From positions 83,718 to 147,717 of the forward strand of contig CAVXNX010000006.1 in NCBI GenBank assembly GCA_963763215.1: DNA of 64,000 nt, given 5' to 3'. Below are positions 8,984-64,000 of this stretch, piece by piece. The translations under genes and the position numbers were made by a program. Positions within the stretch are counted from its first letter, which is position 1; each line of letters starts with the position of its first letter. The notes beneath the pieces are model-generated. The model did not search any database and had not been told where the DNA came from. It saw nothing but the letters and a program-made list of their open reading frames with translations. Source of the stretch: an uncultured Bacteroidales bacterium (GTDB lineage: Bacteria > Bacteroidota > Bacteroidia > Bacteroidales > GCA-2748055).

Positions 8984-9538
8984 TCAACCCGGGTAGAGTG
9001 AACGAAACGGGTAATGATTTCCGGACCGGCGCGCAGCCGGCATCGAATGTGGACAAAATCCCGGGCTTTGCCCTCCTTGAATGAAGCCACCGGTCCCTGG
9101 AGCCGAAGGGTCATCGAGTTTTCGTGCAAACACTATTTCGGATTTTCCGATGGCCTCTTCCGGCCGGCCTCTCATCGCGCTCCAGGTTTCGTCGATAGCC
9201 ACCTGGGTCACCGGCCTGATGCCGGTGCATGACATGGCGCTCCAAACCGTGTCGCGCTTGATATCGCTCCTGATTTTCCCGCTGCCCTTGGGGTAGCAGG
9301 CCCAGAACATGCAATCGTATTTCCCGGCCCCGAAAGCCCGGCTGACCAGTTCAACCAGCTCATCCTGGCTGGTGGCGAACACCTGGACGAAATCATACGT
9401 TCCTTTGTCTTGATCAGCGAAGGTCGTGTCGAAGTCAAGTTCCTCCAGAATTTTTCCATAGGCAGGCGGCGCATTGATCACCAGGATTTTCTTCTCCGGG
9501 TCCAGCCGAAGTTTTTTGAAAAGAGCACTTTTATTCAT
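8984..9538 (-). CDS. hypothetical protein, DUF3052-like
   Basis: WACYPKGSGKIRSDIKRDTVW...AIDETWSAMR resembles DUF3052 proteins as I remember them. The last ~50 aa are low-complexity, so the natural stop may have been lost by a frameshift. Confidence 0.35.
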   Translation of the reverse strand: MNKSALFKKLRLDPEKKILVINAPPAYGKILEELDFDTTFADQDKGTYDFVQVFATSQDELVELVSRAFGAGKYDCMFWACYPKGSGKIRSDIKRDTVWSAMSCTGIRPVTQVAIDETWSAMRGRPEEAIGKSEIVFARKLDDPSAPGTGGFIQGGQSPGFCPHSMPAARRSGNHYPFRSLYPG

Positions 9539-11117: not shown

Positions 11118-11621
11118 TTATTGGATTCCGACCACCTGACTCCGGCGTTCCATCAGGACCACATCGCGCCAACGGTCCTCCATCTTCCCGATCTTTTCCC
11201 GGACACCAACCACGCGGAAGCCGTTTTTCAGGTGCAAATGAATGCTACTTTCGTTTTCCGGAAAAATGCCTGCCTGCAGGGTCCATAGGCCATGCGTTTC
11301 GGATTCGGTGATCAGGGCCTGCATCAATGTGTTGCCAATACCCTGCCCCTGGTAGTCCGGATCGATATAAATGCTCACTTCCACAACGCCTGAATATACC
11401 GGCCTTTCCGACATGTTGGAAAGCGCTGCCCATCCTGCCGTCTGATCCCCGGAAAGGGCAATCAGCCGGCAATCTTTTCGGTGGGTCTTATTCCATGAAT
11501 TCCAGTCGGGAACATGCTTCTCAAATGTGGCATTTCCGGAAGCAATACCGAAATTATATATCCGGATGACATCATTCCAGTGATGCTCGGTCATGATTTC
11601 AATGCGTACTATTGTATCCAT
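11118..11621 (-). CDS. GNAT N-acetyltransferase (phosphinothricin-acetyltransferase-like)
   Basis: 167 aa with acetyl-CoA motif QGQGIGNTLM and an N-terminal GNATFE segment typical of PAT-type GNATs. Confidence 0.75.
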   Translation of the reverse strand: MDTIVRIEIMTEHHWNDVIRIYNFGIASGNATFEKHVPDWNSWNKTHRKDCRLIALSGDQTAGWAALSNMSERPVYSGVVEVSIYIDPDYQGQGIGNTLMQALITESETHGLWTLQAGIFPENESSIHLHLKNGFRVVGVREKIGKMEDRWRDVVLMERRSQVVGIQ

Positions 11622-11675
11622 CGTCGGTGATAAATAATCAAAAGATCTGGCAGCAATTCATCATTATCATTTACC

Positions 11676-11832
11676 TAGTGCTTGCAAGAAAACGCCAATA
11701 GCTGCGTTATGCTCGACTTCAAAACAGTCATTTACGAATAGTAAACTCCTGTTTTTCAGTCATCGCAAGCCTTGCTCTTGACGTTTTCTTATCAAGCACG
11801 GCTAAAAAACATGAGTTTTCTTTCTGACACTA
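11676..11832 (-). repeat. copy A of a 157-bp repeat (153-bp core flanked by TA); MITE-like
   Basis: Base-by-base comparison shows the exact reverse complement of 56660..56816 (157/157). It lies in the gap between the cysteine synthase stop (11851) and the GNAT start (11621). Confidence 0.9.
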
Positions 11833-11850
11833 CCTATGATCCGCAATGGA

Positions 11851-12774
11851 TCATAAGTCATTGTATTTAAAACCGGTATCGCAGAGAATTGTTGCAATCG
11901 TTTTCACTGCTCCATGGCTTTGGGCGTACTTTATGGCGGCGGCGACGTTGGCTCCGGACGAATATCCGGCGAAAAGTCCCTGTTCTCCACTGAGCCTCCG
12001 GGTCATTGTCCTCACCTCATCGTCAGAAACGGTGACAATATCATCCGCCAGCTCCGGGTCCCAATGAGGAGGGATCAGCCCGTAGCCAACCCCCTGGATG
12101 ATATGCCTGGGATCTTTGATCTTCCCTGTCTTCAGGATCGCGGCGTTGGCGGGTTCGACAGCGACACACCGGATCTGCCTGTTCCGGCTCTTCAGATACC
12201 TTGAGGTACCGGTGAAGGTGCCGCCGCTGCCAACAGCGGTGACAAAGGCATCCAGGTTGGGAAGACCGGCGAGGATCTCCGGTCCGGTCGTCTCGAAATG
12301 GGCTTTGACTCCCGAGGGATTACGGAACTGATCGACATAAAATCCGCCGCGTTCTGAGGCCAGGTCCTTTGCCACCTTTGAAGCGTATTCGATATCCTTT
12401 CCGGTGACCATTCCTTCCCGGCCGTTGACCTGCCTGGTGACAATGACTTCGGCACCAAGGGCTTTCAGTAGCCTGATCCTTTCCGGGCTGTTGCCCTCGG
12501 GCATCACTGCCGTAAAAGGATTGCCGAACCGGCGGCATACCACTGCCAGGCCGGAACCCATATTGCCGCTGGTCATTTCCACCACCTCCTGGCCTTTGCG
12601 GAGCCGCCCGTCGGCATAGGCGTCGATGATGATCTGGAGCGCGGCCCGGTCCTTGATGCTCCCGCCGGGTTGCATATACTCCACCTTTGCAAAGATTTGG
12701 AACGACGGTCCCGAGAGCCTGTCCAGAAGGACCATCGGTGTCCGTTTTATCAGATCGAGAGTTGTGCGGATCAT
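11851..12774 (-). CDS. cysK: cysteine synthase / PLP-dependent beta-replacement enzyme (CysK/CysM family)
   Basis: PLP-lysine motif GGSIKDRAAL and the GSGGTFTG loop; 307 aa. Confidence 0.85.
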   Translation of the reverse strand: MIRTTLDLIKRTPMVLLDRLSGPSFQIFAKVEYMQPGGSIKDRAALQIIIDAYADGRLRKGQEVVEMTSGNMGSGLAVVCRRFGNPFTAVMPEGNSPERIRLLKALGAEVIVTRQVNGREGMVTGKDIEYASKVAKDLASERGGFYVDQFRNPSGVKAHFETTGPEILAGLPNLDAFVTAVGSGGTFTGTSRYLKSRNRQIRCVAVEPANAAILKTGKIKDPRHIIQGVGYGLIPPHWDPELADDIVTVSDDEVRTMTRRLSGEQGLFAGYSSGANVAAAIKYAQSHGAVKTIATILCDTGFKYNDL

Positions 12775-13121: not shown

Positions 13122-13397
13122 ATGATTGTTTCATTTGGTTCAAAGGATACCGCGAATATATGGAATGGGGAACGAGTAAAAAAGACGCCGATTGAGATAC
13201 AGCAAATTGGACGGAGAAAATTGAGAATGATTAATAACTCCCAAAATTGGTCGGATTTGAGAATACCTCCCTCAAACAGCTTTGAGAAATTAAAAGGTTC
13301 AGATTTTTATAGTATCAGAATTAATGACCAATGGAGAATAGTACTGAGGTGGATCGATAATAATGCACACGATGTTGAGATAGTTGATTATCATTAA
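13122..13397 (+). CDS. higB: HigB-type toxin (RelE/ParE superfamily, killer protein)
   Basis: 91 aa. FGSKDTANIWNGERVKK...LRIPPSNSFEKLKG...YSIRINDQWRIV is the canonical HigB pattern. Confidence 0.85.
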   Translation: MIVSFGSKDTANIWNGERVKKTPIEIQQIGRRKLRMINNSQNWSDLRIPPSNSFEKLKGSDFYSIRINDQWRIVLRWIDNNAHDVEIVDYH

Positions 13398-13416
13398 AAA
13401 ATTGGAAGATTTAAAA

Positions 13417-13719
13417 ATGGACAGATTAGCAAACATACATCCAGGCGAGATTTTACTTGAGGAGTTTTTACGTCCTCTTGATATTACGGCTTATAGATTA
13501 TCAAAGGATACAGAGATTCCACAGTCTCGTATTTCACAAATTGTTAAAGGAAAACGGAGGATAACGGCTGATACTGCATTGAGATTTTCCTCATATTTTG
13601 GGACAACTGCAAAATTTTGGCTTGGGCTTCAAGATGATTATGACATTGAAGAAGAAAGGAAAGATAAGCAAGAAATATTCATGAAAATAAAGACAAACGC
13701 ACCACAGCATCAGGTATAG
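13417..13719 (+). CDS. higA: HigA-type antitoxin (XRE HTH)
   Basis: IHPGEILLEEFLRPLDITAYRLSKDTEIPQSRISQIVKGKRRITADTALR is the HigA/VapI HTH. The ORF track starts at 13384, but the internal ATG at 13417 gives the usual N-terminus. Confidence 0.85.
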   Translation: MDRLANIHPGEILLEEFLRPLDITAYRLSKDTEIPQSRISQIVKGKRRITADTALRFSSYFGTTAKFWLGLQDDYDIEEERKDKQEIFMKIKTNAPQHQV

Positions 13720-47660: not shown

Positions 47661-48104
47661 TTAGAACCTTCTCGTGGTCAGTATAATATCCGAATCGGGT
47701 TCCGGTGTCCCCGGATCCCTTTCAGCCGTGACAAAGATTTTTGTCGGTTTAACCGACGAGACGGTTTTAAAATCGGCTTTGAGCCTTTTGGAGAATAAAC
47801 CCGAACCGCTGGTGATCTGTCCGATATTTTTGGTCTCCTGATTTTCGGACTCCATCCAAACGACGTACACATCCTTCGGAGGATGAAGATTCTGAGGAGG
47901 AGCCAGGTTCTCGATTTGAACGGAAATCACGTAATTATCATTTTTATCCTGCTTCACCGATACCGATCCTTCGGCAGCCGGGACGACGGGTGAACTCAGG
48001 AAGGGTGCCTTCGTGGCGCATGACCCAAGAAAGAGCAGCATCAGGATGAGAGGGATCGCCGCCATGAAAGGGTGTGGCCGTTTAAGAGGGTTTTGTGTTT
48101 TCAT
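47661..48104 (-). CDS. hypothetical lipoprotein
   Basis: Signal peptide with lipobox FLGSC and a beta-rich 147-aa body. Family not recognised. Confidence 0.55.
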   Translation of the reverse strand: MKTQNPLKRPHPFMAAIPLILMLLFLGSCATKAPFLSSPVVPAAEGSVSVKQDKNDNYVISVQIENLAPPQNLHPPKDVYVVWMESENQETKNIGQITSGSGLFSKRLKADFKTVSSVKPTKIFVTAERDPGTPEPDSDIILTTRRF

Positions 48105-49003
48105 CTATAAGTTAGTGAATTTTTGGTGAAGATGTCTGAGTGAAATCATCGTTTATATATATAAACACTTATAAACCAAAAAGTTCACAGTTCAGGGGCG
48201 AAAAGTGTTGATGACAATGCCGGGTGGATGCAAAAAGAAATGGCCTGACCCCATTTTTCCACGACATTTTTCGTAAAGAACGGCAGGCATTGAAAGGCAG
48301 AAGGTGCACTGGCTTAGCGGGAGTTTTTACATGTCCGGGAGCTTCGAACCGTGTTTCATTCTCTCCCGGTTTGCCATTTTCCCTTTCATCAATGGTCATT
48401 CGGAAAGCCGGAATGGGGGGAAGTGAAACTCTGCGGTAATTCGGCCATGCAGGATGGTGGTGAATTTTACCGGTCAGGCGATGTCATGTATTGATTTTCT
48501 TAGACCTTTTTGATTAGACGTGAAGAAAATATGGTCACTGATCAATGATAAATCAAGGTTTATCAATACGAGTATGCTATTGATCCCAAGTGGTTTGTTA
48601 ATAATTTGTTAATGACTTACTTTTAATATGGTGCTTGGAAAAGTACCATTCGCCAGACAGGACATATTGAAACTAAAGGCGTTGATTGAGGAAAATGGAA
48701 AAACAGTCCTAACTCTCTCAATAACAACATGATTAACTTTAGAAAATTCAATATTTACTGGGACTGACGTGACGGAAGTTTATATATCTCTAAGCTTGAG
48801 ATATTCTAAAGCAATTTCACTCCTTCATAAAAATTCTTCAGAGGATATACAAGCCCAATCTTTCCCAAAAAGTAATATTCACTTAACGGAGGAATTATAC
48901 TATGGATTTAACAAGTTATCATTTGCCGATTACTGAATAAGATTTCATCCTAAAATACTTCGATCCATCACCAAATTAAATGATATAAACAAATATTTTC
49001 ACT

Positions 49004-49792
49004 ATGAAACCTTTCCTCGGACATCCTTTCTTCGTCTTTTTTCTTATGCTAATTTCCTGTTCAATGCTATTAAGTTCTTGTGTAATGCAACGCAATGTAG
49101 AATATTTACAGGATAAGAATGATTCTATTAAAACATTTGAAGAGGTCGTTTTGCCCGATTATAAGCTTAAGACCAATGATGAATTATATATTCAGATAAA
49201 TAGTCTCGATGATGCATCAGCCAATGTATTTTCCAGTGGTCGTGAATCTTCATATAATATAGGTACCATGCAGCCTTATGGCGCGTCCCTTATATCATAT
49301 TCAGTGGATAAAGAAGGCTATCTACTTTTGCCTGTTATAGGAAAGATTCAGGTCGAGGAAAAGACATTACCAGAAGTAAGTAGTATTTTACAGGATTCAC
49401 TTAGCCATATTCTGAATCATCCGATAATAACAGTAAAGCTTGTCAACAGGTATGTTTCGGTTTTGGGAGAAGTGAGAAGCCCGGGACATTTTGCGTTCGC
49501 ACAGGATAAGATCTCCATATACGACGCAATTAGTCTTGCAGGAGATATTACTGAATATGGAAATCGTGAAAATGTGATCCTTGTTCGTAACGAATTTGGG
49601 GAGAACAAACGAATCAATGTTGACCTGACTAGTTCAGATATTCTCGCCTCTACATATTATAATCTCAGACCAAATGATATAGTTTATGTTAAGCCTCTAA
49701 GTAAAAAGTTCTGGGGAATGAGACAATTTCCATTTGATATTTTGCTTTCATCTTTAACAACTGGGTTATTAATTTATAGTGTATTTAAATAG
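49004..49792 (+). CDS. wza: polysaccharide export outer-membrane protein (Wza/BexD family)
   Basis: YKLKTNDELYIQI (Poly_export-like) and VSVLGEVRSPGHF (SLBB-like). It is the first gene of the AT-rich locus. Confidence 0.8.
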   Translation: MKPFLGHPFFVFFLMLISCSMLLSSCVMQRNVEYLQDKNDSIKTFEEVVLPDYKLKTNDELYIQINSLDDASANVFSSGRESSYNIGTMQPYGASLISYSVDKEGYLLLPVIGKIQVEEKTLPEVSSILQDSLSHILNHPIITVKLVNRYVSVLGEVRSPGHFAFAQDKISIYDAISLAGDITEYGNRENVILVRNEFGENKRINVDLTSSDILASTYYNLRPNDIVYVKPLSKKFWGMRQFPFDILLSSLTTGLLIYSVFK

Positions 49793-49971
49793 GTTGATGA
49801 CCGTATTTAATAGTTAGATGTTGAGATGTTAAAAGTTCTAAAAATTTGAATGAATTGTTAGATAAATAATTATATATTATAATGAAAATACTTCGGCAAG
49901 TCAGATACTTACGATTTTCTTTATTCGGAACTTATTATTTCAGAATATATGAATCTTAATATTAAACTTTT

Positions 49972-52398
49972 ATGTCACAAAGAAGAAACATAAATGTCCA
50001 GGACGAAAATGATTTCAAAAAGGTAGTTGGATTATTCTTTAGGAATTTTAAGTTATTCACTATTAGTTTAATAATCGCAATTGCACTTGCATTTTTCATC
50101 AACCATTATTCAATTCCAGTTTATAAAATATCATCCTCAATTCTTATTAAAGAAAATAAAGCTCAACAAAGTAGTGGAGATGTTAATAATTTTCTCAATA
50201 GCAGTTTATTTGGAAATAATCAAAATTTTCAGAATGAACTCTGGGTGTTGAAATCTTCGCCTGTTATGGAACAAACTGTAAGAGACTTGGATTTGTTGGT
50301 TAATTATTATGAAAAAAGTGACTTCAAGTACCAGGATGCGTATCAGAATATACCCTTCAGAGTGATTTTTATAAAGGACCATCCTCAACCGATCAATGTA
50401 AAATTTGAACTCACATTTTTGATTGATGGATATTTCAACCTAAAGGCGAAATCAAAAGAAGCAGTCTTCTATAATTTTGAAACCGGACAGGCCGCAAAGA
50501 TCAAGGACAGATGGTCGTTCAATAAAAATGGAATATTCGGTGAATTAATAGAAACCGACGACCTGGCATTTATTATCGAGGCTGATAGTAGCATCCACAC
50601 ACTTAAAGAAAGTATACAAACATATGCATTTGAATTTAAAACAGTGACCCAATTGAAAAATGAACTCAAAAACATGCTGGAGTTTAATGTTGTGGATAAA
50701 ATGGCAACAGTGATAGAAATTAGTATAAAAATGGAATCTGTAAAAAAAGGGGAAGATATTGTCAATGAACTGATGGATGTTTATTCCTCTCAAAACCTGG
50801 AAAGAAAAAATCACATTGCCAGTATTACAATTGATTATATTGAAAAACAACTGGATGAGATTTCTGATTCATTAAGCCAGACGGAAGATCATTTGCAAAG
50901 TTTCCGTTCGTCAAACCAGTTATTAAATGTGAAGGAACAGGCAAATGACATATCTCAACTGTATATGAATTTGCAAAATCAACTTGCAGAATTGGTTACC
51001 AGGAAGCAATATTATGATTATGTTGCCGACTATCTGGAAAAGAATAGTAATTTTTCAAATATGATTATTCCCTCCTCTCTTGGAATACAGGATCCTCTAC
51101 TTAATAATCTTATGTCTGAGCTCATTTCGGCACAGGCACAACGATCAAATCTTATCGAAAACAATCAGGAGAGAAATCCGCTTGTCCAAAAACTCGGTAT
51201 CCAGATAGATAATGTTAAAGAGACGATATTTGAAAACATTACAGAAGTGATTAAGACTACCAATATGGCAATTGAAGAAATGAATAAGAGGATAAGCAAA
51301 ACCAAGGCAGAAATCAGCAGATTACCTCAAACGCAACGTGAACTTGGAAGCATTGAACGCAAATATAGCCTTAATAATGCGATATATAATTACCTGCTCG
51401 AGAAGAGAGCCGAGGCTAAAATTACAAAAGCTTCAAACCTGCCCGACAATTTAATAATCGAGCCTGCTGCTATGGTTGGTATGACACCCATTTCACCAAA
51501 TAAGCGCATCAATTATATCATCGCTTTGATTTTTGGGATGGCTTTGCCATTCGGTTTTTTAACTTTGAAAAGCGCTCTTAATAATAAAATTGAAGGACAG
51601 GATGATATCGAACAATTGACATCAGAACCAATCTTGGGAAAAATTCTACATAATCGATATAAAACAGAGAATGTTATGTTTGAATTTCCTAAATCGGATA
51701 TTGCGGAATCCTTTCGTGCCCTTCGGACTAATCTTGATTTCTATGTAAGGGGGGGGCATAAGAAAGTGGTGATGGTAACTTCGTGTTTCGAAAAGGAAGG
51801 TAAAACATTTGTTGCATTGAACCTTGCAATGAGTTACGCTCAATTAGGGCGTAAGACTATTCTAGTAGATTTTGATTTGCGCAAACCGAAGAAATATTTT
51901 AATAATGTGGAAAAATTTCATGACGGGCTAAGCTCCTACATGATCGATAAAATTAGCCTTGGTGATATTATTCATAAATCTCCTCATGAGAATCTGGATT
52001 ATATAATGGCAGGAATTTTACCTCCCAATCCGGTGGAATTAATAGCCGATGATAAAACTGAAAAGCTTTTAGCCATCCTTAAGGATGTATATGATATTAT
52101 TGTTTTGGATACTACTCCTTTGGCTCAGGTTACAGATGCTTACTTGTTGTTGAATCATTCAGAGTTAAAAATACTTGTGACCCGCCAAAATCTTACAATA
52201 AAGAAAGTATTCTCATTGATTGTCAAGGATCTGCAGCTTAAACGAGTTGATAATGTCTGTGTAGTCTTAAATGATAATAAAATATACGGCGATCAGTATG
52301 GATATGGTTATGGGTATAATGGTAAGGGAAAATCAGGGAAACAAATAAAACAGAGTGGCGCGAGAACGGCACAAGAAAATAAAATTAGAACCAGTTGA
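49972..52398 (+). CDS. wzc: chain-length determinant / tyrosine autokinase (Wzc/GumC-type)
   Basis: 808 aa: an N-terminal Wzz-like region with a long coiled coil, the P-loop region VTSCFEKEGKTFVALNLA, IIVLDTTP, and a C-terminal Tyr cluster YGDQYGYGYGYNG. Confidence 0.85.
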   Translation: MSQRRNINVQDENDFKKVVGLFFRNFKLFTISLIIAIALAFFINHYSIPVYKISSSILIKENKAQQSSGDVNNFLNSSLFGNNQNFQNELWVLKSSPVMEQTVRDLDLLVNYYEKSDFKYQDAYQNIPFRVIFIKDHPQPINVKFELTFLIDGYFNLKAKSKEAVFYNFETGQAAKIKDRWSFNKNGIFGELIETDDLAFIIEADSSIHTLKESIQTYAFEFKTVTQLKNELKNMLEFNVVDKMATVIEISIKMESVKKGEDIVNELMDVYSSQNLERKNHIASITIDYIEKQLDEISDSLSQTEDHLQSFRSSNQLLNVKEQANDISQLYMNLQNQLAELVTRKQYYDYVADYLEKNSNFSNMIIPSSLGIQDPLLNNLMSELISAQAQRSNLIENNQERNPLVQKLGIQIDNVKETIFENITEVIKTTNMAIEEMNKRISKTKAEISRLPQTQRELGSIERKYSLNNAIYNYLLEKRAEAKITKASNLPDNLIIEPAAMVGMTPISPNKRINYIIALIFGMALPFGFLTLKSALNNKIEGQDDIEQLTSEPILGKILHNRYKTENVMFEFPKSDIAESFRALRTNLDFYVRGGHKKVVMVTSCFEKEGKTFVALNLAMSYAQLGRKTILVDFDLRKPKKYFNNVEKFHDGLSSYMIDKISLGDIIHKSPHENLDYIMAGILPPNPVELIADDKTEKLLAILKDVYDIIVLDTTPLAQVTDAYLLLNHSELKILVTRQNLTIKKVFSLIVKDLQLKRVDNVCVVLNDNKIYGDQYGYGYGYNGKGKSGKQIKQSGARTAQENKIRTS

Positions 52399-52563
52399 TA
52401 TCGAATAAATGAGTATTTTGATCTGATTAATTATTCTAAAATCTAATACCTGAATTAGTTTTCAAGTTACAGTTCAGAACGGTATCGAAAAAAACATAAA
52501 AACATTTGTAACCTGCATTTATAAATAAGATCATCTTTCCTGTTTATAATATATGAATTCAAA

Positions 52564-52971
52564 ATGTCACAAAAAAATAAGGTTCAAATAATTAATCTCC
52601 CAAAAATTGAAGATGATCGCGGTAATCTTTCATTTATTGAAGAAGAGAATCATATCCCATTTAAAATCAATCGGGTTTACTGGATTTATGATGTCCCAGG
52701 TGGTGAATTCAGAGGGAGCCATGCCTTTAAGAAATCTGAAGAATTCATCGTTTCCCTGTCAGGGAGCTTCGACGTCGTTTTGCATAATGGGAAAGAAGAA
52801 AAGAAATTTTCACTTAGTCGATCTTATTACGGATTATATGTACCAAATGGGATCTTCCGGAGGCTGGAAAATTTCTCTACCAATTCGGTTGCACTGATCT
52901 TAACTTCAACTCTATTCGATGAAAGTGATTACATCAGGAACTTTAAAGAATTTTTGAATTACCTAAAATGA
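52564..52971 (+). CDS. FdtA/WxcM-like cupin (dTDP-4-keto-6-deoxyhexose 3,4-ketoisomerase-like), divergent copy
   Basis: DDRGNLSFIE...INRVYWIYDVPGGEFRGSHAFKK...DESDYIRNFKEF. It carries HAF where the FdtA-type sequence has HAH. Confidence 0.75.
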   Translation: MSQKNKVQIINLPKIEDDRGNLSFIEEENHIPFKINRVYWIYDVPGGEFRGSHAFKKSEEFIVSLSGSFDVVLHNGKEEKKFSLSRSYYGLYVPNGIFRRLENFSTNSVALILTSTLFDESDYIRNFKEFLNYLK

Positions 52972-53402
52972 TATTAAAAGCATCAATTTATAATTGTAGT
53001 ATTCTTGAATTAAGCAAAATTCACAACAGATCAGGTAGTATTACTGCAATTGAGGACAGATTCGATATTCCCTATGAAGTAAAACGCGTATACTATCTTT
53101 ACGATGTTCCGGGTGGAGCCGAAAGAGGGGGCCATGCACACCAGGAATTGCAGCAGTTGGTCGTTGCCGCAAGTGGATGTTTCGATGTTATTTTAGATGA
53201 TGGCAGAAATAAAAAAGTGGTTGAACTGAACCGACCTTACTACGGATTACACATTGTGCCAGGAATATGGAGGGAAATTTGTAATTTCTCCTCCGGAGCG
53301 GTATGCCTTGTACTCGCATCCAGTAAATATGATGAAAATGATTATTTCAGGAATTATGATGATTTTTTACAGTTCAAACTTGGTTCAAAAAAAAGGAGCT
53401 GA
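52968..53402 (+). CDS. fdtA: FdtA-like dTDP-4-keto-6-deoxyhexose 3,4-ketoisomerase
   Basis: KRVYYLYDVPGGAERGGHAHQELQQ...LDDG...VLASSKYDENDYFRNYDDF closely follows the FdtA pattern, including both His residues. Confidence 0.8.
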   Translation: MILKASIYNCSILELSKIHNRSGSITAIEDRFDIPYEVKRVYYLYDVPGGAERGGHAHQELQQLVVAASGCFDVILDDGRNKKVVELNRPYYGLHIVPGIWREICNFSSGAVCLVLASSKYDENDYFRNYDDFLQFKLGSKKRS

Positions 53403-53618
53403 CTACAGGTTGAATCTCATACTTGGTAACAATAGGTGGTAAAAGTAAGGAAGTCGGATGTCGGAAGTCAGACCTCCGACTGATTAAACGCAATATGATA
53501 GTAGCATTTAAAGAGAAAATAAGTGAGCTCAGCAGGTCACTTCTAACATCTAACTTCGGCTTCATTAAGATATTCTTTAATTGTAATTAAAGTACTAATC
53601 CTTTTATAACCTAAAGCG

Positions 53619-54551
53619 ATGCTTATTGATGTCCCCGTGAAAACTTACCGTCAGTATTTTCATACTGATCCACACCCTTATGTGTCAGAAAACTTCATTT
53701 CATTAAATAAGCATAAAGCCGATAGAATTGTGCGACTTATAGAAAATGATGAAAGGGTTTCAATTGGAATTATTGCCGGCATAAAAGATAATACTTTTTA
53801 TTCGCCTTTCTCAGCGCCATTTGGTGGATTTCACTTTATAAGTAATGAAATAAGAACTGGTGAAATATCTGAATATATCGATGATTTAAGGACTTTTCTT
53901 ATTGATCAAAAATTGCAAAAATTCAAACTTGTATTACCTCCGAATATGTATCATCATTCAATGAATGCAAAATTCGTTAATACATTCATACGGAGTGGAT
54001 TTGAGATGGCATTGCCGGATATATCTAACTATATTGATCTGAAAACATTCGATGGTACGTGGGTAAAAAAGCGTGTGGCCGAACGATGTCAGTTTGCCGA
54101 AAGAAACAATCTTTCTTTCCATTATCTTACGGATGATAAAATGAAAATGGATGCTTATGAGATTATTGTCATAAACCGAACACAGTTTGACCGTAAAATT
54201 TACATGACCTACAACGACTTGATGGATGTCGATACGATAATGCCTGTTGATTTCTTTATGGTGAAAGACAGAACAGGAGAAAATGTCGGGTCTGCGGTTT
54301 GTTACCGTGGGCATGAATCTATTGTTCAAGCCATATTCTGGGGAGATACTCAGGTAGGAAGAAAATTGGGAACCATGGATTTTTTGGTAAAATATTTATT
54401 TAAGCATTATAAAGAACTTGGTTTTGATTTCATAGATATTGGTATTTCTACAGAGGATGGAATTCCAAATGAAGGATTAATACGTTTTAAGGAATCACAT
54501 AATTGTACTTCCTGTTTAAAATTTTCCTTTTCACTTAATCTTCCTGAATAA
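53619..54551 (+). CDS. putative acyltransferase (GNAT/FemAB-like fold), family uncertain
   Basis: 310-aa intact ORF between the isomerase and aminotransferase genes, where an N-acyltransferase is expected. I can point to no diagnostic motif. Confidence 0.35.
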   Translation: MLIDVPVKTYRQYFHTDPHPYVSENFISLNKHKADRIVRLIENDERVSIGIIAGIKDNTFYSPFSAPFGGFHFISNEIRTGEISEYIDDLRTFLIDQKLQKFKLVLPPNMYHHSMNAKFVNTFIRSGFEMALPDISNYIDLKTFDGTWVKKRVAERCQFAERNNLSFHYLTDDKMKMDAYEIIVINRTQFDRKIYMTYNDLMDVDTIMPVDFFMVKDRTGENVGSAVCYRGHESIVQAIFWGDTQVGRKLGTMDFLVKYLFKHYKELGFDFIDIGISTEDGIPNEGLIRFKESHNCTSCLKFSFSLNLPE

Positions 54552-54579
54552 CAAAATCTGAAATGAATTTAATCATGAT

Positions 54580-55710
54580 ATGATTCCGTTTCTCAATTTG
54601 AAAGAGATTAATGATAGTTTCGAACCTTATCTGTCAGGTGCAATTAAGAGGATATTGGATTCGGGTTGGTACCTCCTTGGAAATGAGGTAAAAGAATTTG
54701 AACACGAGTATTCTAAATATATAGGCACAAGAAACTGTATTGGGGTGGCCAACGGATTAGATGCCTTACGTTTGATTTTCAGGGCGTATAAGGAACTTGG
54801 TGCAATGACAGATGGTGATGAAATAATTGTTCCGGCAAATACGTTCATTGCTTCAATTCTTGCTCTTACAGACAACAACCTCGTACCTGTCCTTGTTGAA
54901 CCGGACATTTCCTCATATAATATTGATCCTTTTAGGATTGAATGCTCTATTACTAAACGCACACGGGGCATTATGGTGGTTCATCTATATGGGCAAAATG
55001 CCATGCATCTGGAGATTAACGGGTTAGTTGAGAAATACAGTCTGAAACTTGTAGAGGACAATGCCCAGGCTCAGGGATGTTATTATGGAGATAAACGTAC
55101 AGGTTCGCTTGGTGATGCCGCAGGGCACAGCTTTTACCCCGGTAAAAATCTCGGGGCATTAGGTGATGCCGGAGCTGTAACTACGGACGACAATGAACTG
55201 GCTGAAGTAATCCGCACCATATCGAATTATGGATCAAAAGAAAAATATCAGTACTTATATAAAGGGCTCAATTCCAGACTGGATGAAATTCAGGCTGCCA
55301 TACTACGTTTAAAACTTCAACGCCTAGATGAAGATAACCGGAAGCGTTCACACATTGCCAACTACTATATTGAACATATATCGAATCCTGCATTAATATT
55401 GCCTTCAATATGCCATCCAGTCGGTATGGGGGCATTAAATACTAACCTTTCGCATGTTTGGCACCTATTTGTCCTTCGCTCGGCAAATCGCAATAAACTA
55501 CAACAATATTTGAGGGAACAAGGTATACAAACATTAATACATTACCCCATTCCGCCCCATAAGCAGAAGGCTATGGAAAGCTGGAATAAGTTGAAATTTC
55601 CGATAACCGAAAAGATACATGAGGAAGTATTGAGCTTGCCAATTAGCCCTGTGATAAATATGGATGATGTAAACACGATCGTAAATACCATTAATAATTA
55701 TAAAGATTAA
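54580..55710 (+). CDS. DegT/DnrJ/EryC1/StrS family sugar aminotransferase (FdtB/QdtB-like)
   Basis: [21 protein letters not shown] (PLP Lys) and [16 protein letters not shown]. Confidence 0.9.
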
Positions 55711-56662
55711 TGTTTTCCTATAAACAAAGTATTTTGAAATATGGTAATCGTTTATTAAAAAGATTTGATTACCAATTAACGAGTACATCCAAGTTAAAAA
55801 GTCTGACCGATTTCACTTCAAATATAATTCGAAACACAGGTGCAAAATTGGATGATGAGAAGATTGATTCTATTGTATTTTCAAAAGACAGGGCAATGCA
55901 ACTTCATGCTTTTTTGCTCTCCTATACTGAAAAAGTAATTAACAGGGGAAGAATGAACGTTCTTTATAAATGCTCGAATAATAAGACATAAAAAGAGCTA
56001 TAACGAATTAATGCAGTCTTTTAAAAATGAAGATTTTATTTTTATCGAAGAAGTTAACTTTCGGGAACAGTTAATAGAAGTTCTCGATCAATCTGATGCT
56101 GGAAAGATAATTTTCTATGTTGATGATATGATATTTACCCTATGAAATAGATTACCAGGTAATTGCCGATATAAATACCAGGGATTATGTTGTATCTCAA
56201 AGGAGAGGTAAAGACATGACGTATAGTGTTGTTCTGCAAAAACCATTGGAATTGCCCCCTTTTACAAAATATCGTTATGGCCTTGAACGATTTTGCTGGA
56301 ATTTTTCTGATGAATACAGTGATTGGACCTATCCGTTAGGTGTAGCGGGTTATATGTACGGGAAAATTGAAATTACGGCCATGTGTAAGGCAATTCCTTT
56401 TAAAGCACCCAATTCCCTTGAAAGTGGTATGCAGCTTTATCTAAATTTCTTCAAAAATCGATTTGGATTATGTGCTGAATTTGCGACATGTGTTTGTGTT
56501 GCTGCAAACCTAGTTCAGACAGAAGGTATTAATCCCGTCATTGGTACATTTAGCGTACAGGAACTATTATTACTTTGGGAAAAAGGGAAGAAAATTGATG
56601 TGCAGCAATTCTATAATAAACCATTGAATGTAACCGAAACACAGAAATATACCTTTATTTAG
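55710..56662 (+). pseudogene. putative glycosyltransferase-like protein, fragmented over three or more frames
   Basis: ORF 55710..55991 (…IVFSKDRAMQLHAFLLS…). My translation of 55990-56150 in other frames continues KSYNELMQSFKNEDFIFIEEVNFREQL...IIFYVDDMIFT. The ORF 56216..56662 follows. Function is unverified. Confidence 0.4.
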
Positions 56663-56816
56663 TGTCAGAAAGAAAACTCATGTTTTTTAGCCGTGCTTGA
56701 TAAGAAAACGTCAAGAGCAAGGCTTGCGATGACTGAAAAACAGGAGTTTACTATTCGTAAATGACTGTTTTGAAGTCGAGCATAACGCAGCTATTGGCGT
56801 TTTCTTGCAAGCACTA
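56660..56816 (+). repeat. copy B of the 157-bp repeat (153-bp core flanked by TA); MITE-like
   Basis: Exact reverse complement of 11676..11832. Its first TA(G) supplies the stop codon of the upstream ORF, and it ends 27 nt before the wzx ATG. Confidence 0.9.
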
Positions 56817-56843
56817 TTTAGGGAAATCCTCGCTGATTGATGC

Positions 56844-58267
56844 ATGAAAAAAAGACAATCCTACAGGCACATTCTAAAAGCGACCAGTCTATTTGGTGGG
56901 GTACAGATCATACAAATATTATCCACCCTGATCCGTGGAAAATTCATCGCTGTTCTACTGGGTCCTGGGGGGATGGGAATAGCAAATCTCTATATCTCTT
57001 CAACAACGATGATCTCAAATATTACAGGACTGGGATTGAACTTCAGTGCGGTGAGAGACATTTCCATGGCAGCCGAAACGAATAACAATACAAGAATCAG
57101 TAAAATAATTAAAGTTTTCAGGCGATGGATATGGTTTAGCGGATTATTAGGTATTGTTGTCACTGTTCTTTTTGCTCCTGCTTTAAGTAAATGGACATTC
57201 GGGAATAATGATTATGCTCCTTGCTTTTATTTGGCTTTCGAGCGTACTTTTAATTAATGCCCTGGCAAAGGGAAATTTAACGATTCTCCAGGGAATGCGT
57301 CAGCTTAGGGCGATAGCTAAATCTACAGTCATTGGATCAGTTATTGGTGTTTTTACAGCCTTTCCACTCTATTATTATTTCGGAGTTGAGGGGATTATTC
57401 CTGCAATCATCATTGCTGCTCTTACGTCGCTTGCGGTTAGTACGTATTATACTAAGAAAATTAAATTACGATCTGTAAATGTGACTTATAAGGAGACCCT
57501 ATATGACGGAAAAGAGATGACCAAACTTGGTGTCTTAATGATGATAAGTCTATTCCTTGGGGCCCTTGTTACTTATGTTTTAAATGCTTTTATACGATAT
57601 AAAGGTGGAATATCGGACGTAGGACTTTACCAGGCAGGATTAAGTATTTCCGACAGATTTATCGGACTTGTATTTGTTGCAATGGGTACTGATTTTTTTC
57701 CCCGGCTATCAGGAATTAGTAAGGATAATGAAAGGTTAGGGAAATGGTAAACCAACAAGCAGAAATCGTGGTCCTTATTGCTGCTCCATTATTAATTGCT
57801 CTTCTCATTTTGGCACCTCTGATTTTACGCTTGTTTCTTTCTTCTGAATTCGCATCAATAGCCGTTTTTATTCGATGGCTTGCTTTAGGTAGTCTATTTA
57901 AAGAGCTTCATATTCAATGGGGTATATTGCCGTTGCTAAAGGAGATAAAAAGGTTTTTTTTATTGTCGAAGGTCTTTTGGGTAATTCGATTAATTTAGTA
58001 TTCAATATTATTGCCTATAATTTTTGGGGTCTGAAAGGTATGGGTATATCTATGTTAATTAGCTATGCCATTTATTTTTATGCGATATTAATGATCACTA
58101 ACCGACTTTACAATTTTGAATTTAGTCGCAAATTTATCAAAATATTTGCCTTTTATTTAGTGCTATGTGTTCTTGCTCTTATTCTCTCATTGGTTTCCGG
58201 TCCTGTATGGATATATTCGGCAGGTTCCATTATTTTTGGTATATCTATATTTTTTACGATCAGATGA
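56844..58267 (+). pseudogene. wzx: Wzx-type oligosaccharide flippase (MOP superfamily), three frame disruptions (~57230, ~57745, ~57950)
   Basis: Four consecutive hydrophobic ORFs (56844..57257, 57208..57750, 57744..57998, 57917..58267) whose N-terminus ILKATSLFGGVQIIQILSTLIRGKFIAVLLGPGGMG is typical of Wzx. The 57745 shift sits at GGGAAATGG, where AAAA would keep the frame. Confidence 0.8.
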
Positions 58268-58481
58268 ACTCGATAAACGTATTGAATTGAAATCCTTGTT
58301 GTTGTTAAAAGCAAATAAGTAAATCGTTTCAATAGGGATAAGTCCAATTGACATTTGCAATGAGCAATAAATCAATCCATGGCTAATAATCGATACAATT
58401 ATAGATAAACATTCAACTTACTTTCTTGATAAAGAGGATTATTCCCTAAGTGATCCATATTTAGACAAAATTCTATTTATT

Positions 58482-59585
58482 TTGTCATTTATCATATTTT
58501 TATTAATGTCACCCTATTTCGTTTGGTCTAATCAAAAATTATTTTTTGGTTTGGCACGTATTTCGACGGATATCATTATACTATATATATTTTTTCTATA
58601 TAATAATTCGCATATTTATAATAAAGAGTTAGTTTTTGTTTTTGTAATTGTATCCTTTTATTCTATGGTAGGAGGTACAGAAAACCGTATGATTAATTTT
58701 GTTCCTTTAGTCCCATATTATTTCTTGCATTAAGACCTAACCAGCAATTAAAAATATTTGATTTATTTGTTACCATATTATCCATTGTATATGCCATTGG
58801 GTTAGCCTCATACATGCTGAAAATTTTGGGTATGAATGTGCAATTAGCAACGGCTATATCATCCAAATACATCAAAATTTCCCTATTCAGTTTACTTCGG
58901 TCACATTGAGGAATCCGGGTTCATTGTTTATCGGTTTTCAAGTATTTTTGATGAACCTGGTGTCGTAGGAACATTAAACGGATTATTACTCTCAGTTATT
59001 GGAATATCGAAAAAAAATATTAAATCAATTATTATATTACTTACAGGTTTAATCTCCTTTTCGCTTGCATTTTATGTCATTCTCATTTTGTATTTAATAT
59101 TAAATTTTAATATTAAACAATCCATAGCTATTGGAATAATCATAATCGGATTAGGTATTGTTACTGGAGATAAGCTAAATTCACTGATAAAGAGCAGGTT
59201 ATTAATCGAAGATTGGCAATTAGCCGGTGATAATCGGACTAGTGCTGTTTTTGATTCATATTTTCACTTTTTTTTAAAAAGTGGAGGTAAAGATCTGATT
59301 TTTGGTAAAGGTCCCGGATCATTTTTTAATATACAGGAAGCGGAGGGAGTTGCAACCTATAAAATTGTTATTATTGACTATGGAATAATTGGAGTATCTT
59401 TAATATTGATTATTTTATTTACTGTGCGTTTTTCGTGAAAATAATTCAAGGCATGGATGGTTCTTTTTTCCTCGTATTGTTGCTTTGCTTCTACCAACGG
59501 CCAGAAGTACTTTATTACCCCTACATTGTTGTTTACGTTGGTGGGCTAAGATATCTTAAGGAAGGGGAAGTTGGTTCTTGCTGAG
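58482..59585 (+). pseudogene. wzy: O-antigen polymerase (Wzy)-like membrane protein, heavily fragmented
   Basis: A run of very hydrophobic, AT-rich ORF pieces (58482..58733, 59088..59438 and unlisted fragments) between the flippase and a glycosyltransferase. Boundaries are approximate. Confidence 0.4.
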
Positions 59586-59716
59586 TCGTTTCAATGATAG
59601 ATTATTTAAAGCTTTACAAAAGTTATCATTAAGAGGATCTAGAAATAATCATTTTTCTAAGGTTTTTTCGAATAGTTAATTGAATACTAAAATACATTTT
59701 ACGCACAAATATCTTA

Positions 59717-60553
59717 GTGGCTTCACAACAATTTCATAATCGTGTTGATAATAATAAAACGGATATTACGGATTTCCCACTGTATCTGTCAATATTATAA
59801 CATATAATTCTGGTGAATATGTAATTGATACTCTTGAAAGTGTCAAAAATCAGATCTACAATAATATTGAATTGATAATTAGCGACGATTGCTCGAGAGA
59901 CCAGACGGTTGCAAAATGCATGGATTGGCTAAACGAAAACTCCAACAGGTTCGTGCGAACAAAAATGCTAACTGTGACTGAAAATACTGGCGTAACTGCT
60001 AACTGTAATAGAAGTCTTGATGTTTCATCTGGTGAATGGATTATGTTTGTAGCAGGAGATGATTTATTATTTGATACTTGCCTTTATAATTTCATCCATC
60101 ATATAAGACAAAATATTCGATGTGAAATAATTGCTTCTAATGTGGTATTCTTTACTGATAATTTAAATTCAAATGAGAATTTTAATTCTCAATTAGAGCA
60201 ATTGAAAATTTTTTCTATTGTGATACTTCTGCAAAAAAACAGTTTAGAATACTTACGTACAGCAATCCAATCCTGGCTCCTTCTGTTTTTATTTCGCGAA
60301 AAAGCTACTTAAAACACTAGGAGGGTTTGATGAACGTTTTAACAATATGGAGGATTATCCATTTTGGCTCAAAGCAACTTCGAATGGTTATAAAATTGAT
60401 TTGATGAATAAATTGACAGCAGGCTATCGATTAAGATCTAATTCTATTAGCGGATATTCAGATGATTCGATTTTTAATAAAGCCTATAAAGATATTTATA
60501 TTTATAGAAAACAATGTACTTTTAAATATTTAAATGTAATAAAGACGATTTAA
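59717..60553 (+). pseudogene. GT2 family glycosyltransferase, several frame disruptions
   Basis: My translation gives (T)VSVNIITYNSGEYVIDTLESVKNQ, then ORF 59872..60312 with ELIISDDCSRDQT and FVAGDD (DxD), then ORF 60347..60553 (EDYPFWLKA...). Start and shift positions are approximate. Confidence 0.7.
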
Positions 60554-60734
60554 TTTAATGTACATTATATTTTATTCGTAGACTTATTCGTTAAAATTAA
60601 ATATTAATAAGGTCGGATATAAAAGCTTATATATTTTTTTATTAAGGTTAAATATTTTCAATTATTATAAATAACAAACTAAAAATTTAGTGGCTTTAAC
60701 ATATCTTTCTTTTTTTATAATTAATGGATGTAAT

Positions 60735-61979
60735 GCAAAACTTGAAAGTCTTATCGTTTAGTAACAACGAATTATTGAAAAGGTTGACAGTAAAAATACG
60801 GGGACCTGGTTAAATACAATGTCACATGGTTTGATGAATACTGGAGAAATTGCATTGTCTAATATTACGCAAGGTAATGTTAAGAAACTGGTTCGACGCG
60901 ATGAGGGTAGTATTAATCAGTGGATTGTTCCTCTAACTATGAAATTGGATAAAGATGGCCTTCCGGGATCACGTATTGTCGATTATTATTTGAAAGTTAT
61001 TGATGATGTAAAGCCGGATCTTATTCACATTTGGGGAACAGAGAGTTATGCAGGATTAATCACTGCAAGAAAGATGGCTCTTACTCCTGTGCTCCTTGAG
61101 ATACAAGGAATAAAAGGTGCTATTGCACGAATTTATGGCGGGCAGTTAACCCTGAGAGAACAATATCAATGCATTGGTATCAAAGAAGTACTAATGCGTT
61201 CTTCTATTTTTCATAGAAATAAACAATATAAGAAATGGGCTTTATATGAGCAGGAAATGATCTCAAATCATAAGAATATAACGGTTTTATCTCCATTTAT
61301 GGAGGCTCAAGTAAGGGCTATTAATCCTGATGCAAATATTTTTCATAATGAAATCATATTACGTGACATATTCTACAAAGGCCCTCGGTGGCAATATACA
61401 GGTAAACCTGTCATATTTACTTTATCTGCCAATTCAGCTCCGTTTAAAGGGTTACATGTATTGATCAGGGCTGTGACCAATTTGAAGAAGGTCTATCCTG
61501 ATATTGAATTGAGGATAGCCGGTTCGCATCAATTAAAAGGTATAAGAAAAGACGGTTATATAGACTGGATATTAAAGGAAATTAAAAAGTCTGATTTGAA
61601 ATCAAACATAATATGGTTAGGAGGGCAAACAGGTGAAGATATTGCAGGCGAACTTAGCCGTTGTTCAGTTGCCGTTTTCCCCAGTTTTATTGAGAGTTAC
61701 GGGATCACCCATATTGAATCAATGGCTATAGGTACTCCTTGTGTTTGTGCCTATAACGGGGGGTATTCGTATTTAGGAGAGGATGAAAAGACCACCTTGT
61801 TTTTCGCGCCGGGTGATCACATAATGTGTGCATTTCATATCCAAAGGCTTTTATCTGATAAAAGACTGGCGGAATCATTTTCTAGCAGAGCCAGGACAGA
61901 TACTCTCAAACGTAATGATAAGCAGAAGATATTGAGTAATCAACTTGATATATACAAAAAAGTGTTGAATCTTGGTTAA
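60735..61979 (+). pseudogene. GT4 family glycosyltransferase, N-terminal ~25 codons in another frame
   Basis: ORF 60819..61979 carries FPSFIESYGITHIESMAIGTPCV (the E-x7-E region). ATG 60735 (MQNLKVLSFSNN...) joins it if one A is added to the A5 run near 60795. Confidence 0.8.
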
Positions 61980-62138
61980 TAATTGAGATCCGTGAGTAAT
62001 GAAAGGATTTAAGATGTCTGATACTTCGTGGCCTAATATTATCCCTGTCTAATTCAAGATAAGTTGTCTTTACCCAGCCACGAAAATGAGCTCTGCAAAA
62101 GTGGAATGTAAAGAATTTGCCAATCCTGCTATCTAAGT

Positions 62139-62728
62139 ATGAAATACAGAAATTTATCTCATTCTTCTGATATACTTATCCGAAAATTATATTCCTTTTA
62201 GGGCGCAGAAATGTTCTCTTTGCCCGTTGGTGGGGAGTGAAACTAGGTAAGAATGCAAAATTTGACGGTAAATGTTATTTCAGGCGTTTCCCTGAATCTT
62301 CTATTAAAATTGGTCAGAATTGTTTATTTCTTTCCCGGGTAAATTCAAATCTTATTGGAATAAATCGGCCGTGTTCGATTTCAACACTCACAAAGGAAGC
62401 TAAAATTGAGATTGGAAATAATTGTGGTTTCAGCGGTACGGTTATAGGGGCGTTTAAATCCATAATATTCGGTCAAGATGTACGATGTGGAGCCAATACA
62501 CTGATAACTGATTCGGATTGGCATTTAGAAGATCCCAGAACCGGAGAGCCTAAAGCGATTGTTATCGGCAACAATGTTTGGTTAGGCGTGAATGTAGTAG
62601 TACTTAAAGGGGTTACCATAGGGAATAATACAATTATCGGGGCAAATAGTTTGGTTATTAATGATATTCCTGAAAATGTTATTGCGGCAGGAAATCCCTG
62701 TAAAGTTATAAGACAGATATATGGATAA
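62139..62728 (+). pseudogene. hexapeptide-repeat (LbH) O-acetyltransferase, frame disruption near 62200
   Basis: ORF 62237..62728 carries IGNNVWLGVNVVVLKGVTIGNNTIIGANSLV repeats. ATG 62139 (MKYRNLSH...) lies in a different frame. Confidence 0.75.
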
Positions 62729-62739
62729 TACAACACTTA

Positions 62740-63828
62740 ATGTTTTGTATCTTAGGTCATTATAATTATCCCAAAGGGGGGGCCTTAGCGAAAAGAGTAC
62801 AATATCAGGCTGAATTTTTGCAACGATCAAATGTTAATGTCTCCATTGTAATACCATTGAAAGGAATTTCAGGGATACTTAATGGTATTCCATATGATTA
62901 TGGTAAACTAAATTCTTTGAGCCGAATTTATCAATTCAGGGGGAAACATAGGAGTTAATATTCTTTTTACTCAGACATTGATTGGCGCTAAAGAATTAAT
63001 TTTTGTTCTTTTTGCAAAGATGTTGGGATATAGGATCGTAATGGATAAGGTGGAATTATTTAATTTCCTCGAAGACCGAATGAGTTTCAGACAAAAAATG
63101 GATATCAAAATCGGGTTGTTTATGGACAATTTTATCAACTGGTTTGCCAACGGGATCATCGTAATATCTACCCTATTATATGAAAAATATAAGGATATAG
63201 GCATTCCATATTATTATTGCCTAATTCTGTGCCTCATTCATTAATTGTTACAAATAATAAAAATAAGTTCAATAACCCTGTAAGAATGGTCTATGCCGGT
63301 TCATATGGTAGAAAGGATGGTGTAGAATATTTGATTCGCGCGTTTAAAAAATTAGTACAACACCATGATAATGTTGAATTACATTTAGTTGGTAAAGGTA
63401 CCAATGAGAACCATCAACGGATTAAGAATGAAATCGGATCGGGAGGATTCGTGATCTATGAACATGGTTATGTAGATGAAGATAACCTTCAGGATATCCT
63501 TTTGGATGCTGATATATTAGCTGTGACAAGGACAAATTCGAAATATGCAAATTTTGGATTCCCTTATAAACTTACAGAATACTTATGCAAAGGGAATCCG
63601 GTTTTGGCCACGCAGGTTGGTGATATTTCATTATATCTCGAAGACAAAAAGAATATCGTATTTGCTAATGCCGAGGATACAGATTCCCTCTGTGACGCTA
63701 TGGAATATTGTTTAACTAATGAAAAACAACTAATTCGGCTTGGCAGAAGGGGTCAAAAAGTAATTCAAAAATTCTTTTCAATTGAAAAAAACGGAAAATT
63801 CTTACTTGATTTTATTCTTGCTATTTAA
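62740..63828 (+). pseudogene. GT4 family glycosyltransferase in three frame pieces
   Basis: ORFs 62740..62958, 62978..63244 and 63217..63828. The last has VRMVYAGSYGRKDGVEYLIRAF and FGFPYKLTEYLCKGNPVLAT. Confidence 0.7.
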
Positions 63829-63932
63829 TGTGTAGGGTAACTAAACCCTCTTTATAATCTATTTTTATCGTTTCTTTAATTTTTTATTACTGTTTCTTAT
63901 TTGAATGAAGACTACAAAGTGTAGTTGACAAA

Positions 63933-64000
63933 ATGAAGACAATTGTTGCATTCATCGGACCATTACCTCCGCCCGTTGGAGGGGTTAGTATGATTAATCA
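63933..64000 (+). CDS. 5' end of another glycosyltransferase-like gene (runs off the window)
   Basis: ATG 63933 gives MKTIVAFIGPLPPPVGGVSMIN, a typical GT N-terminal glycine-rich loop. Only 22 codons are visible. Confidence 0.35.
   Translation, partial: MKTIVAFIGPLPPPVGGVSMIN

Follow-up and report, generated by a model that had tools for sequence, protein, structure and literature searches.

The two identical 153-bp sequences that lie in inverted orientation in the window (the whole 64-kb stretch of DNA analysed here) are best explained, with a probability that we put at roughly 0.85, as members of a family of non-autonomous transposons (MITEs) of the Bacteroidota. Members of the family have sharp ends, inverted repeats and variable 6-bp duplications of the target, they are found as dispersed and identical copies, and one orthologous site lacks the element. 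MITEs are common in bacteria and this family is unsurprising in kind; what is noteworthy in it is the 6-bp duplication at TANNTA, a hairpin-plus-tail organisation with three copies of the end motif, and a bias of the hairpin towards one strand. Literature searches, whether for the sequence or for the subject, turned up no account of this MITE family, which appears, as far as this can be checked, to be undescribed.

Two identical copies in the window

Copy 1 of the repeat (11676-11832, plus strand) matches 56660-56816, read as the reverse complement, at 157/157 bases and the similarity between the two breaks off sharply at each side, so that sequence comparison bears out the first-pass annotation on the identity, the inverted orientation and the abrupt borders of the pair. 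The copies are separated by 44,827 nt and form the sole direct or inverted repeat of at least 40 nt within the 64-kb window, and an unfiltered covariance-model search of the window found no copy beyond these two. The 153-bp core of copy 1 (11678-11830, plus strand) reads GTGCTTGC...CTGACAC on the plus strand, and the stabler or 'sense' strand of its hairpin is the minus strand, on which the covariance model R1 scores it at 177.9 bits. The core of copy 2 (56662-56814, minus strand) has the same sequence, inverted, with the plus strand as its 'sense' hairpin strand.

Sequence and family statistics identify the hexamers around each core as target-site duplications. Copy 1 is flanked by TACCTA on the left (11672-11677) and on the right (11831-11836), and copy 2 by TAAATA, as read on the minus strand, on the left-repeat side (56815-56820) and on the right-repeat side (56656-56661), the latter reading TATTTA on the plus strand. 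Since the duplications of the two copies differ, the copies arose by separate insertion and not by segmental duplication or as an artefact, and since each copy retains matched flanks there has been no net inversion between them since insertion. To judge from these sequences, the window copies are separate and recent insertions, and the expected empty-site junctions (marked by a slash) are ...TTTACCTA/TGATCC... and ...CCTTTATTTA/GGGAAATCC...

The same features bear on the reading of the pair as an assembly artefact, a segmental duplication, or two recombination sites that invert the 44.8-kb segment between them. Copies that are 100% identical, inverted and 44,827 nt apart would suit such a reading, and 157 bp of identity could support RecA-mediated inversion; however, the hexamers match within each copy and differ between the two, the flanks have not been swapped by an odd number of inversions, and neither copy coincides with a break in GC skew. 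The element is moreover present in many unrelated genomes, contrary to the possibility, raised in the first-pass annotation, that only two copies exist and reflect an assembly error, and we regard this explanation as scarcely credible.

The flanking genes are those originally named. Copy 1 lies between a PALP/cysK gene (11851-12774, minus strand) and a GNAT gene (11118-11621, minus strand), and copy 2 between an unannotated ORF (56216-56662, plus strand) and a wzx-like flippase gene that starts at 56844 (plus strand), which places it at the stop codon of the ORF and 29 bp upstream of the wzx-like gene. The TAG stop of this ORF (56660-56662) is made up of the last TA of the hexamer and the first G of the element, and the empty site would yield an identical stop. 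The contrast in base composition between the two host regions is also real, with a local GC content of ~51% at copy 1 and ~37% at copy 2. If there is any effect on the host, it would be that of a predicted, very stable stem-loop in two intercistronic gaps.

Elsewhere in the window, positions 9117-9133 (inside ORF 8984-9538) match the left terminal repeat at 14/17 bases (GTGTTTGCACGAAAACT). This stretch was considered as a third repeat site and judged to be a chance match, because no element, hairpin or second end surrounds it.

Ends and target-site duplication

Species-representative genomes were scanned with a 20-nt degenerate pattern that matches both arms of the hairpin, and 39 unique complete copies, with cores of 96-233 bp (mode 153 bp), were extracted from the matches listed. 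All 39 follow the plan TA-NN-TA / GTG...CAC / TA-NN-TA. The terminal inverted repeats are imperfect (GTG[CT][TC][TA]GCAAGAAAAC): the left repeat, GTGCTTGCAAGAAAAC (11678-11693, plus strand, in copy 1), is near-invariant family-wide and the right repeat has the consensus GTGTCAGCAAGAAAAC. The two match at 13/16 positions in the family consensus and at 12/16 in the window copies, whose right repeat (GTTTTCTTTCTGACAC; 11815-11830, plus strand, in copy 1) has A for C at position 8.

The TA at each end, from which a TA duplication had been proposed, is present, but the duplicated unit is the 6-bp hexamer TANNTA. In 27 of the 39 copies the two hexamers agree at 6/6 positions, each single hexamer position agrees across the two sides in 33-36 of the 39, and the next two bases outward are random; the consensus over the 39 copies is TANNTA with variable NN. 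Most copies would look no different if the duplication were of 2 bp or 4 bp and the element also preferred a certain target. Non-TA outer bases are, however, duplicated at L062 (CAAATA on both sides) and at L094/L096 (flanks TCATAA/TCATTA), and 6 bp is therefore favoured over 2 or 4 bp. We accordingly read the flanking sequences as a probable 6-bp duplication at a preferred TANNTA target. An 8-bp duplication of the hAT kind was rejected, as the bases beyond the hexamer are not duplicated.

Elements of the IS630/Tc1-mariner type duplicate TA only, and a 6-bp duplication therefore excludes a simple IS630/Tc1-mariner origin; the duplication of that type suggested at first is at odds with the variable NN and the outer dinucleotide, both of which are duplicated too. 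Among the features by which MITEs are recognised, the family has a target duplication of fixed length and variable sequence, a size below the usual limit of ~300-500 bp, a non-coding interior, terminal inverted repeats, and dispersed copies with insertion polymorphism. The family-wide ends and duplications thus support the initial description of a MITE-like mobile element with a 153-bp core and an internal hairpin.

Two further patterns were seen at the insertion sites. The stop codon of an adjacent ORF (at least 100 aa) overlaps the edge of the hexamer or element in 10/39 copies (L035, L048, L050, L054, L058, L066, L071, L090, L018 and the window at 56660-56662). Eight of these ten overlaps are a TAG formed from the TA of the hexamer and the first G of the element, and nine are on the left-repeat side, window copy 2 being the sole right-repeat-side case; a bias of insertion or of retention is possible, with the small numbers (10/39 copies) to be borne in mind. 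Two elements also often stand back to back on one shared TANNTA hexamer, for example as ...GACAC TAAATA GTGTCTGC..., and such sites include L058:2433-2633, L060:4877-5033, L044:1553-1727 and L061:~3940. It seems that the hexamer duplicated by one insertion was reused as the target of the next.

Distribution and mobility of the family

The number of copies had been left to a wider search, and the scan of species-representative genomes places it at no fewer than 92 loci in at least 17 Bacteroidota assemblies, with ends and duplications defined. Among the matches listed, the hosts are Bacteroidales, Bacteroidaceae, Lentimicrobiaceae, Salinivirgaceae and 'Sphingobacteriia' MAGs, together with one cultured host, Marinilabilia salmonicolor JCM 21150 (NZ_AJKI01); the host MAGs include CAYMLS01, JAIPBT01 and MEOG01. 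A single MAG, CAYMLS01, has at least 39 loci, many of them with the element at a contig end, as is usual for a repeat at which assemblies break. About 35 full-length BLASTN matches to the window copy, at 70-92% identity, are present among the matches listed, and their alignments share the element positions at which they start and stop. BLASTN against plasmids and phages gave no match, nor did three scans of viral contigs. No conserved ORF was found in the element across the family; a small ORF, MTEKQEFTIRK, was considered as conserved coding sequence and set aside, being missing from divergent subfamilies.

Recent mobilisation, as first argued from the identity of the pair, is borne out by identical copies, unlike target duplications and a multi-copy family in many genomes. 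In CAYMLS01 at least six identical 153-bp copies stand at different hexamers, those of six copies being TATTTA, TAATTA, TATGTA, TAAATA, TAAGTA and TTAATA/TAAATA. The flanks of locus L006 align to L083, from the MAG of another species, with 77% identity over 526 nt, and the element is absent in L083; the intergenic sequence of L083 has diverged, so this is a case of presence and absence between species and not a clean empty site. For the window's own sites, cysK has its closest homologue beyond the source contig at 74% identity, and searching for exact matches to the flanking proteins brought up no contig. The element is real, was active recently and belongs to a MITE family that is ordinary in kind.

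Anatomy and conservation of the hairpin

From its left end, GTGCTTGCAAGAAAACG, the element forms a 122-nt hairpin, which is followed by a tail of 19-31 nt with the second functional end, GTTTTCTTGCTGACAC. The interior folds back on an inverted near-copy of the left end, CGTTTTCTTATCAAGCAC, which has one extra base. In copy 1 this internal arm (11782-11799, plus strand) pairs with the left repeat and closes the 122-nt hairpin (11678-11799), and the 31-nt tail (11800-11830, plus strand) carries the right terminal inverted repeat and the AAAAC-ATGA-GTTTT mini-hairpin. The long inverted repeat and the mini-hairpin of the first-pass annotation are therefore real, RNAfold giving a hairpin of ~122 nt and a small 5' hairpin. 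The pairing of the proposed arms also stands, but the internal one is never an end, no 122-bp copy with a duplication of its own having been seen, and the right end is instead the weaker repeat in the tail. The internal arm is more conserved than this right repeat, and the hairpin-plus-tail plan is common to all subfamilies.

When 46 distinct copies, drawn from all the subfamilies, are aligned with a covariance model derived from 15 copies of the main family, 94.1% of the pair cells are standard pairs. In 23/45 pairs there are changes on both sides, which are compensatory and keep the hairpin. Five measures of pairing were compared with 500 shuffles, of which none reached any of the five, and slid controls pair at 35-46%. 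Middle stems of unrelated sequence have equal geometry (GACUGAAAAACAGG/CUGUUUUGAAGUC in one form, GCAACGAAUUUAUGG/ACAGAAAUUCGUUGC in another), and the internal loops keep two unpaired motifs, AGGC and AAC.

Several variations on this plan were observed. The 175-bp copies L007 and L081 represent a variant with a 22-bp insertion, to which the contig-end copies with 'CCCAAAATGAAATGTGGG', considered as a longer element, also belong; a metagenome scan for the 'CCCAAAATGAAATGTGGG' form returned nothing. The apical stem UUUAC-loop-GUAAA gives way to, or is accompanied by, other small GC-rich hairpins in some subfamilies, e.g. TCCCGATAATATATCGGGA and CCTGCCTGTCCGGTAGGCAGG (L048:6650-6819, L052:2145-2314, L015:~2400-2700, L071:3776-3970 and L014/L050/L070), which resemble nested insertions of another type of mini-palindrome. 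An unrelated repeat of ~100-160 bp, with 70-84% identity, lies near several copies in MAG CAYMLS01 and one other MAG (L037:~2265-2421, L007:15-175, L043:1335-1475, L039:3191-3287, L081:1652-1753, L084:6173-6300, L083:5151-5309 and L005:3707-3859) and is another dispersed repeat family of these genomes.

Strand bias of the hairpin

The strand that reads GUGUCAG...GCAAGCAC folds better than its complement in 39/39 copies, with mean energies of -60.3 and -48.3 kcal/mol; for copy 1, RNAfold gives -62.8 kcal/mol (z -7.8) for the minus strand and -44.9 kcal/mol (z -5.1) for the plus strand. The same strand is the stabler one in 44/46 scans of the hairpin module, the other two being the same copies caught from the opposite arm. 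Neutral transitions in double-stranded DNA are expected to leave G.U and A.C mismatches in equal numbers. The structural alignment has 204 G.U cells at 28 pairs and 22 A.C cells at 11 pairs, and the 15 main-family copies have 59 G.U and 2 A.C, counts that come from copies related by descent and from an alignment fitted to a model of the sense strand, and so tilted towards G.U. Cut-and-paste movement of purely double-stranded DNA would not be expected to produce such a strand bias, and in this respect the bias stands against the MITE reading.

The element could instead be primarily a mobile structured RNA, or a strand-specific module of single-stranded DNA, in which selection would act on the hairpin itself, as an RNase target, say, or a stabiliser of mRNA, or else as a small RNA or a cofactor in its own mobility, and the transposon features would serve only to spread it. 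The compensatory changes and pairing statistics given above, the geometry kept in subfamilies with unrelated middle stems, the conserved AGGC and AAC loop motifs, and the stability and mismatch biases all speak for such a module. A palindromic transposon can, however, covary without selection on RNA, the alignment used for the mismatch counts itself favours G.U, and unrelated small hairpins replace the apical stem in some copies. Neither a sigma-70-like promoter nor an intrinsic terminator was found in either window copy, and no Bacteroidetes-type TAnnTTTG box was seen by eye in them. Rfam returned nothing for the window at the gathering level and, at E<=10, two chance-level matches of 14.5-14.8 bits against thresholds of 39-48, which goes against the possibility, named in the first-pass annotation as one that would refute its reading, that the sequence matches a known structured RNA family.

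Orientation is also unhelpful to a role in transcripts. Relative to flanking ORFs, the 39 copies are unbiased by crude ORF calls (same/same 8, opposite/opposite 8), and the orientation to local transcription that the two window copies share, to which the first-pass annotation drew attention, is on this account a coincidence of two. The window copies are opposed within one region that has no reversal of skew, and a strict replication-strand rule is therefore unlikely. On balance we consider it unlikely that the element is primarily an RNA or single-stranded DNA module, and give a similarly low probability to the more specific proposition that the hairpin is under strand-specific selection, as RNA or single-stranded DNA, and that the transposase mobilising it is of a type new to prokaryotic MITEs. 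Were this so, the element may be a structured module that is mobile, or else a transposon whose movement requires one strand to be folded. The 6-bp TANNTA duplication and the ends, which are reminiscent of target choice by hAT elements, and the failure to find a parent IS in over 100 loci would suit such a transposase.

Search for the mobilising enzyme

For the preferred reading of a MITE, movement would depend on a transposase supplied in trans, most likely of the DDE type, which would bind both terminal repeats. The element would insert at the flexible target TANNTA by way of a 6-bp staggered cut, the repair of which would duplicate the hexamer; both the class of the enzyme and the geometry of the cut are what we infer from the elements it would move. 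Few IS families fit a 6-bp duplication (IS481, IS982, IS1634 and some IS21), and the usual ends of these four are unlike the ends of this MITE.

A transposase with matching ends, whether of the IS630 type for which the first-pass annotation suggested a search or of any other kind, was detected neither in the window and 100 loci nor by two metagenome scans. In the window and the 100 loci there was no transposase of any family beside or between the repeats, and no two repeat-like ends at a spacing of 400-4000 bp shared a hexamer. An all-against-all BLASTP of 504 ORFs from 92 loci returned common families only (ABC ATPases, sulfatases and oxidoreductases), with no ORF family recurring beside the copies of the 92 loci, and an all-against-all comparison of the loci at the nucleotide level gave no common repeat longer than ~300 bp. 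The second metagenome scan, filtered against common MITE interiors, yielded eight loci, all of them MITE copies or fragments.

Five loci in which sequence other than that of the MITE comes after the left end (L004, L019, L082, L010 and L067) were considered as a parent element and proved to be truncated copies. Truncated copies adjoin a LexA-like repressor, serpins, a tail-fibre-like protein and others.

Comparison with known elements

The Correia elements of Neisseria (CREE/NEMIS) share much with this MITE: both are ~100-155 bp, non-coding and multi-copy, carry terminal inverted repeats, have TA in their target, lie for the most part between genes and give a long hairpin when transcribed. Correia elements duplicate TA only and carry promoters and an IHF site, and we know of no parent transposase for them. 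In contrast, the MITE described here belongs to another phylum, has an unrelated sequence and a 6-bp TANNTA duplication, is without a promoter-like site, and has a third copy of the repeat in its tail. RNase III cleavage and regulatory effects are described for Correia (PMC10969869).

ERIC elements of Enterobacteria and Vibrionaceae are likewise imperfect, MITE-like palindromes found between genes, with a length of ~127 bp. Their target duplication is TA. They form a gammaproteobacterial family of unrelated sequence, and the present family has no orientation bias to genes. The hairpin of ERIC RNA has effects on mRNA stability that depend on orientation, and small hairpin MITEs of the Correia and ERIC kind that lie between genes can enter transcripts (PMC10969869). 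The likeness to Correia and ERIC drawn in the first-pass annotation holds for a small hairpin MITE between genes but not for phylum, sequence or length of duplication.

Closer in host range are MITEPgRS and BrickBuilt of Porphyromonas gingivalis and MITECca01 of Cardinium, which are found in the same phylum and are also non-autonomous with terminal inverted repeats. MITECca01 is ~240 bp long, derives from the IS982 family and occurs in one Cardinium strain only (PMC9769881), and BrickBuilt contains a minisatellite (PMC4596501). The present family is unrelated to these described Bacteroidota MITEs, MITECca01 and BrickBuilt, and its sequence stood in none of the papers searched.

A more distant likeness is to hAT elements of the hobo type, whose duplication consensus is NTANNTAN and whose terminal repeats are TAGGCTTGAGC or CAGTGGTTC... 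(PMC3014272). Their target, too, is centred on TAnnTA, and the ends found here are TA/GTGCTTGCAAG and TA/GTGCTTG... (the slash marking the element border). hAT elements are, however, eukaryotic and make an 8-bp duplication, and the likeness is one of target and end sequence alone.

REP/REPIN sequences and IS200/IS605-derived palindromes are, like this MITE, short, multi-copy and intergenic, with strand-specific hairpins. They have neither a target duplication nor terminal inverted repeats and are moved by an HUH enzyme, and a REP/REPIN consists of a short GTAG/CGTC-tagged palindrome with an associated RAYT gene. The present element might on this model be a REP/REPIN-like or IS200/IS605-derived palindrome, moved as single-stranded DNA by an HUH (Y1) transposase, which its long hairpin, the strand-specific stability of that hairpin and the want of a DDE partner would suit. 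The perfect 6-bp duplications in 27/39 copies contradict it, however, as do the GTG...CAC inverted ends, and no neighbouring gene recurs; we therefore hold this origin to be very improbable.

Significance and further features of the window

The MITEs make up a widespread and apparently unannotated family of repeats in Bacteroidales/Marinilabiliales-type genomes, and this family breaks short-read assemblies, dozens of contigs in one MAG ending within the element. Insertions occur beside or onto stop codons and in operon gaps, here at the cysK-GNAT pair and at a polysaccharide locus, and identical inverted repeats of 150 bp could promote inversions. Taken together, the ends as now defined and the 6-bp TANNTA duplication provide a precise signature with which to trace the transposase responsible, and the bias of the hairpin to one strand is a testable hint of a role as RNA or single strand.

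Other features of the window were noted in passing. At ~48 kb the GC content falls sharply from ~50% to 31-37%, with GC skew staying positive, and the region of ~48000-64000 has polysaccharide-biosynthesis genes that include a DegT aminotransferase and the flippase; it looks like a horizontally exchanged surface-polysaccharide locus. The wzx-like flippase (56844-58267) is spread over at least four overlapping ORFs (56844-57257, 57208-57750, 57744-57998 and 57917-58267), the first, second and fourth of which have Pfam matches to consecutive parts of Polysacc_synt/MurJ, and the split reflects either the frameshifts of a pseudogene or indel errors in an AT-rich region. The ORFs at 55710-55991 and 56216-56662 may likewise be fragments of one gene. 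Finally, two small neighbouring plus-strand ORFs at 13122-13719, one of 91 aa and one of ~100-111 aa according to which start codon is taken, resemble on visual inspection a putative HigB/RelE-type toxin and an HTH antitoxin.
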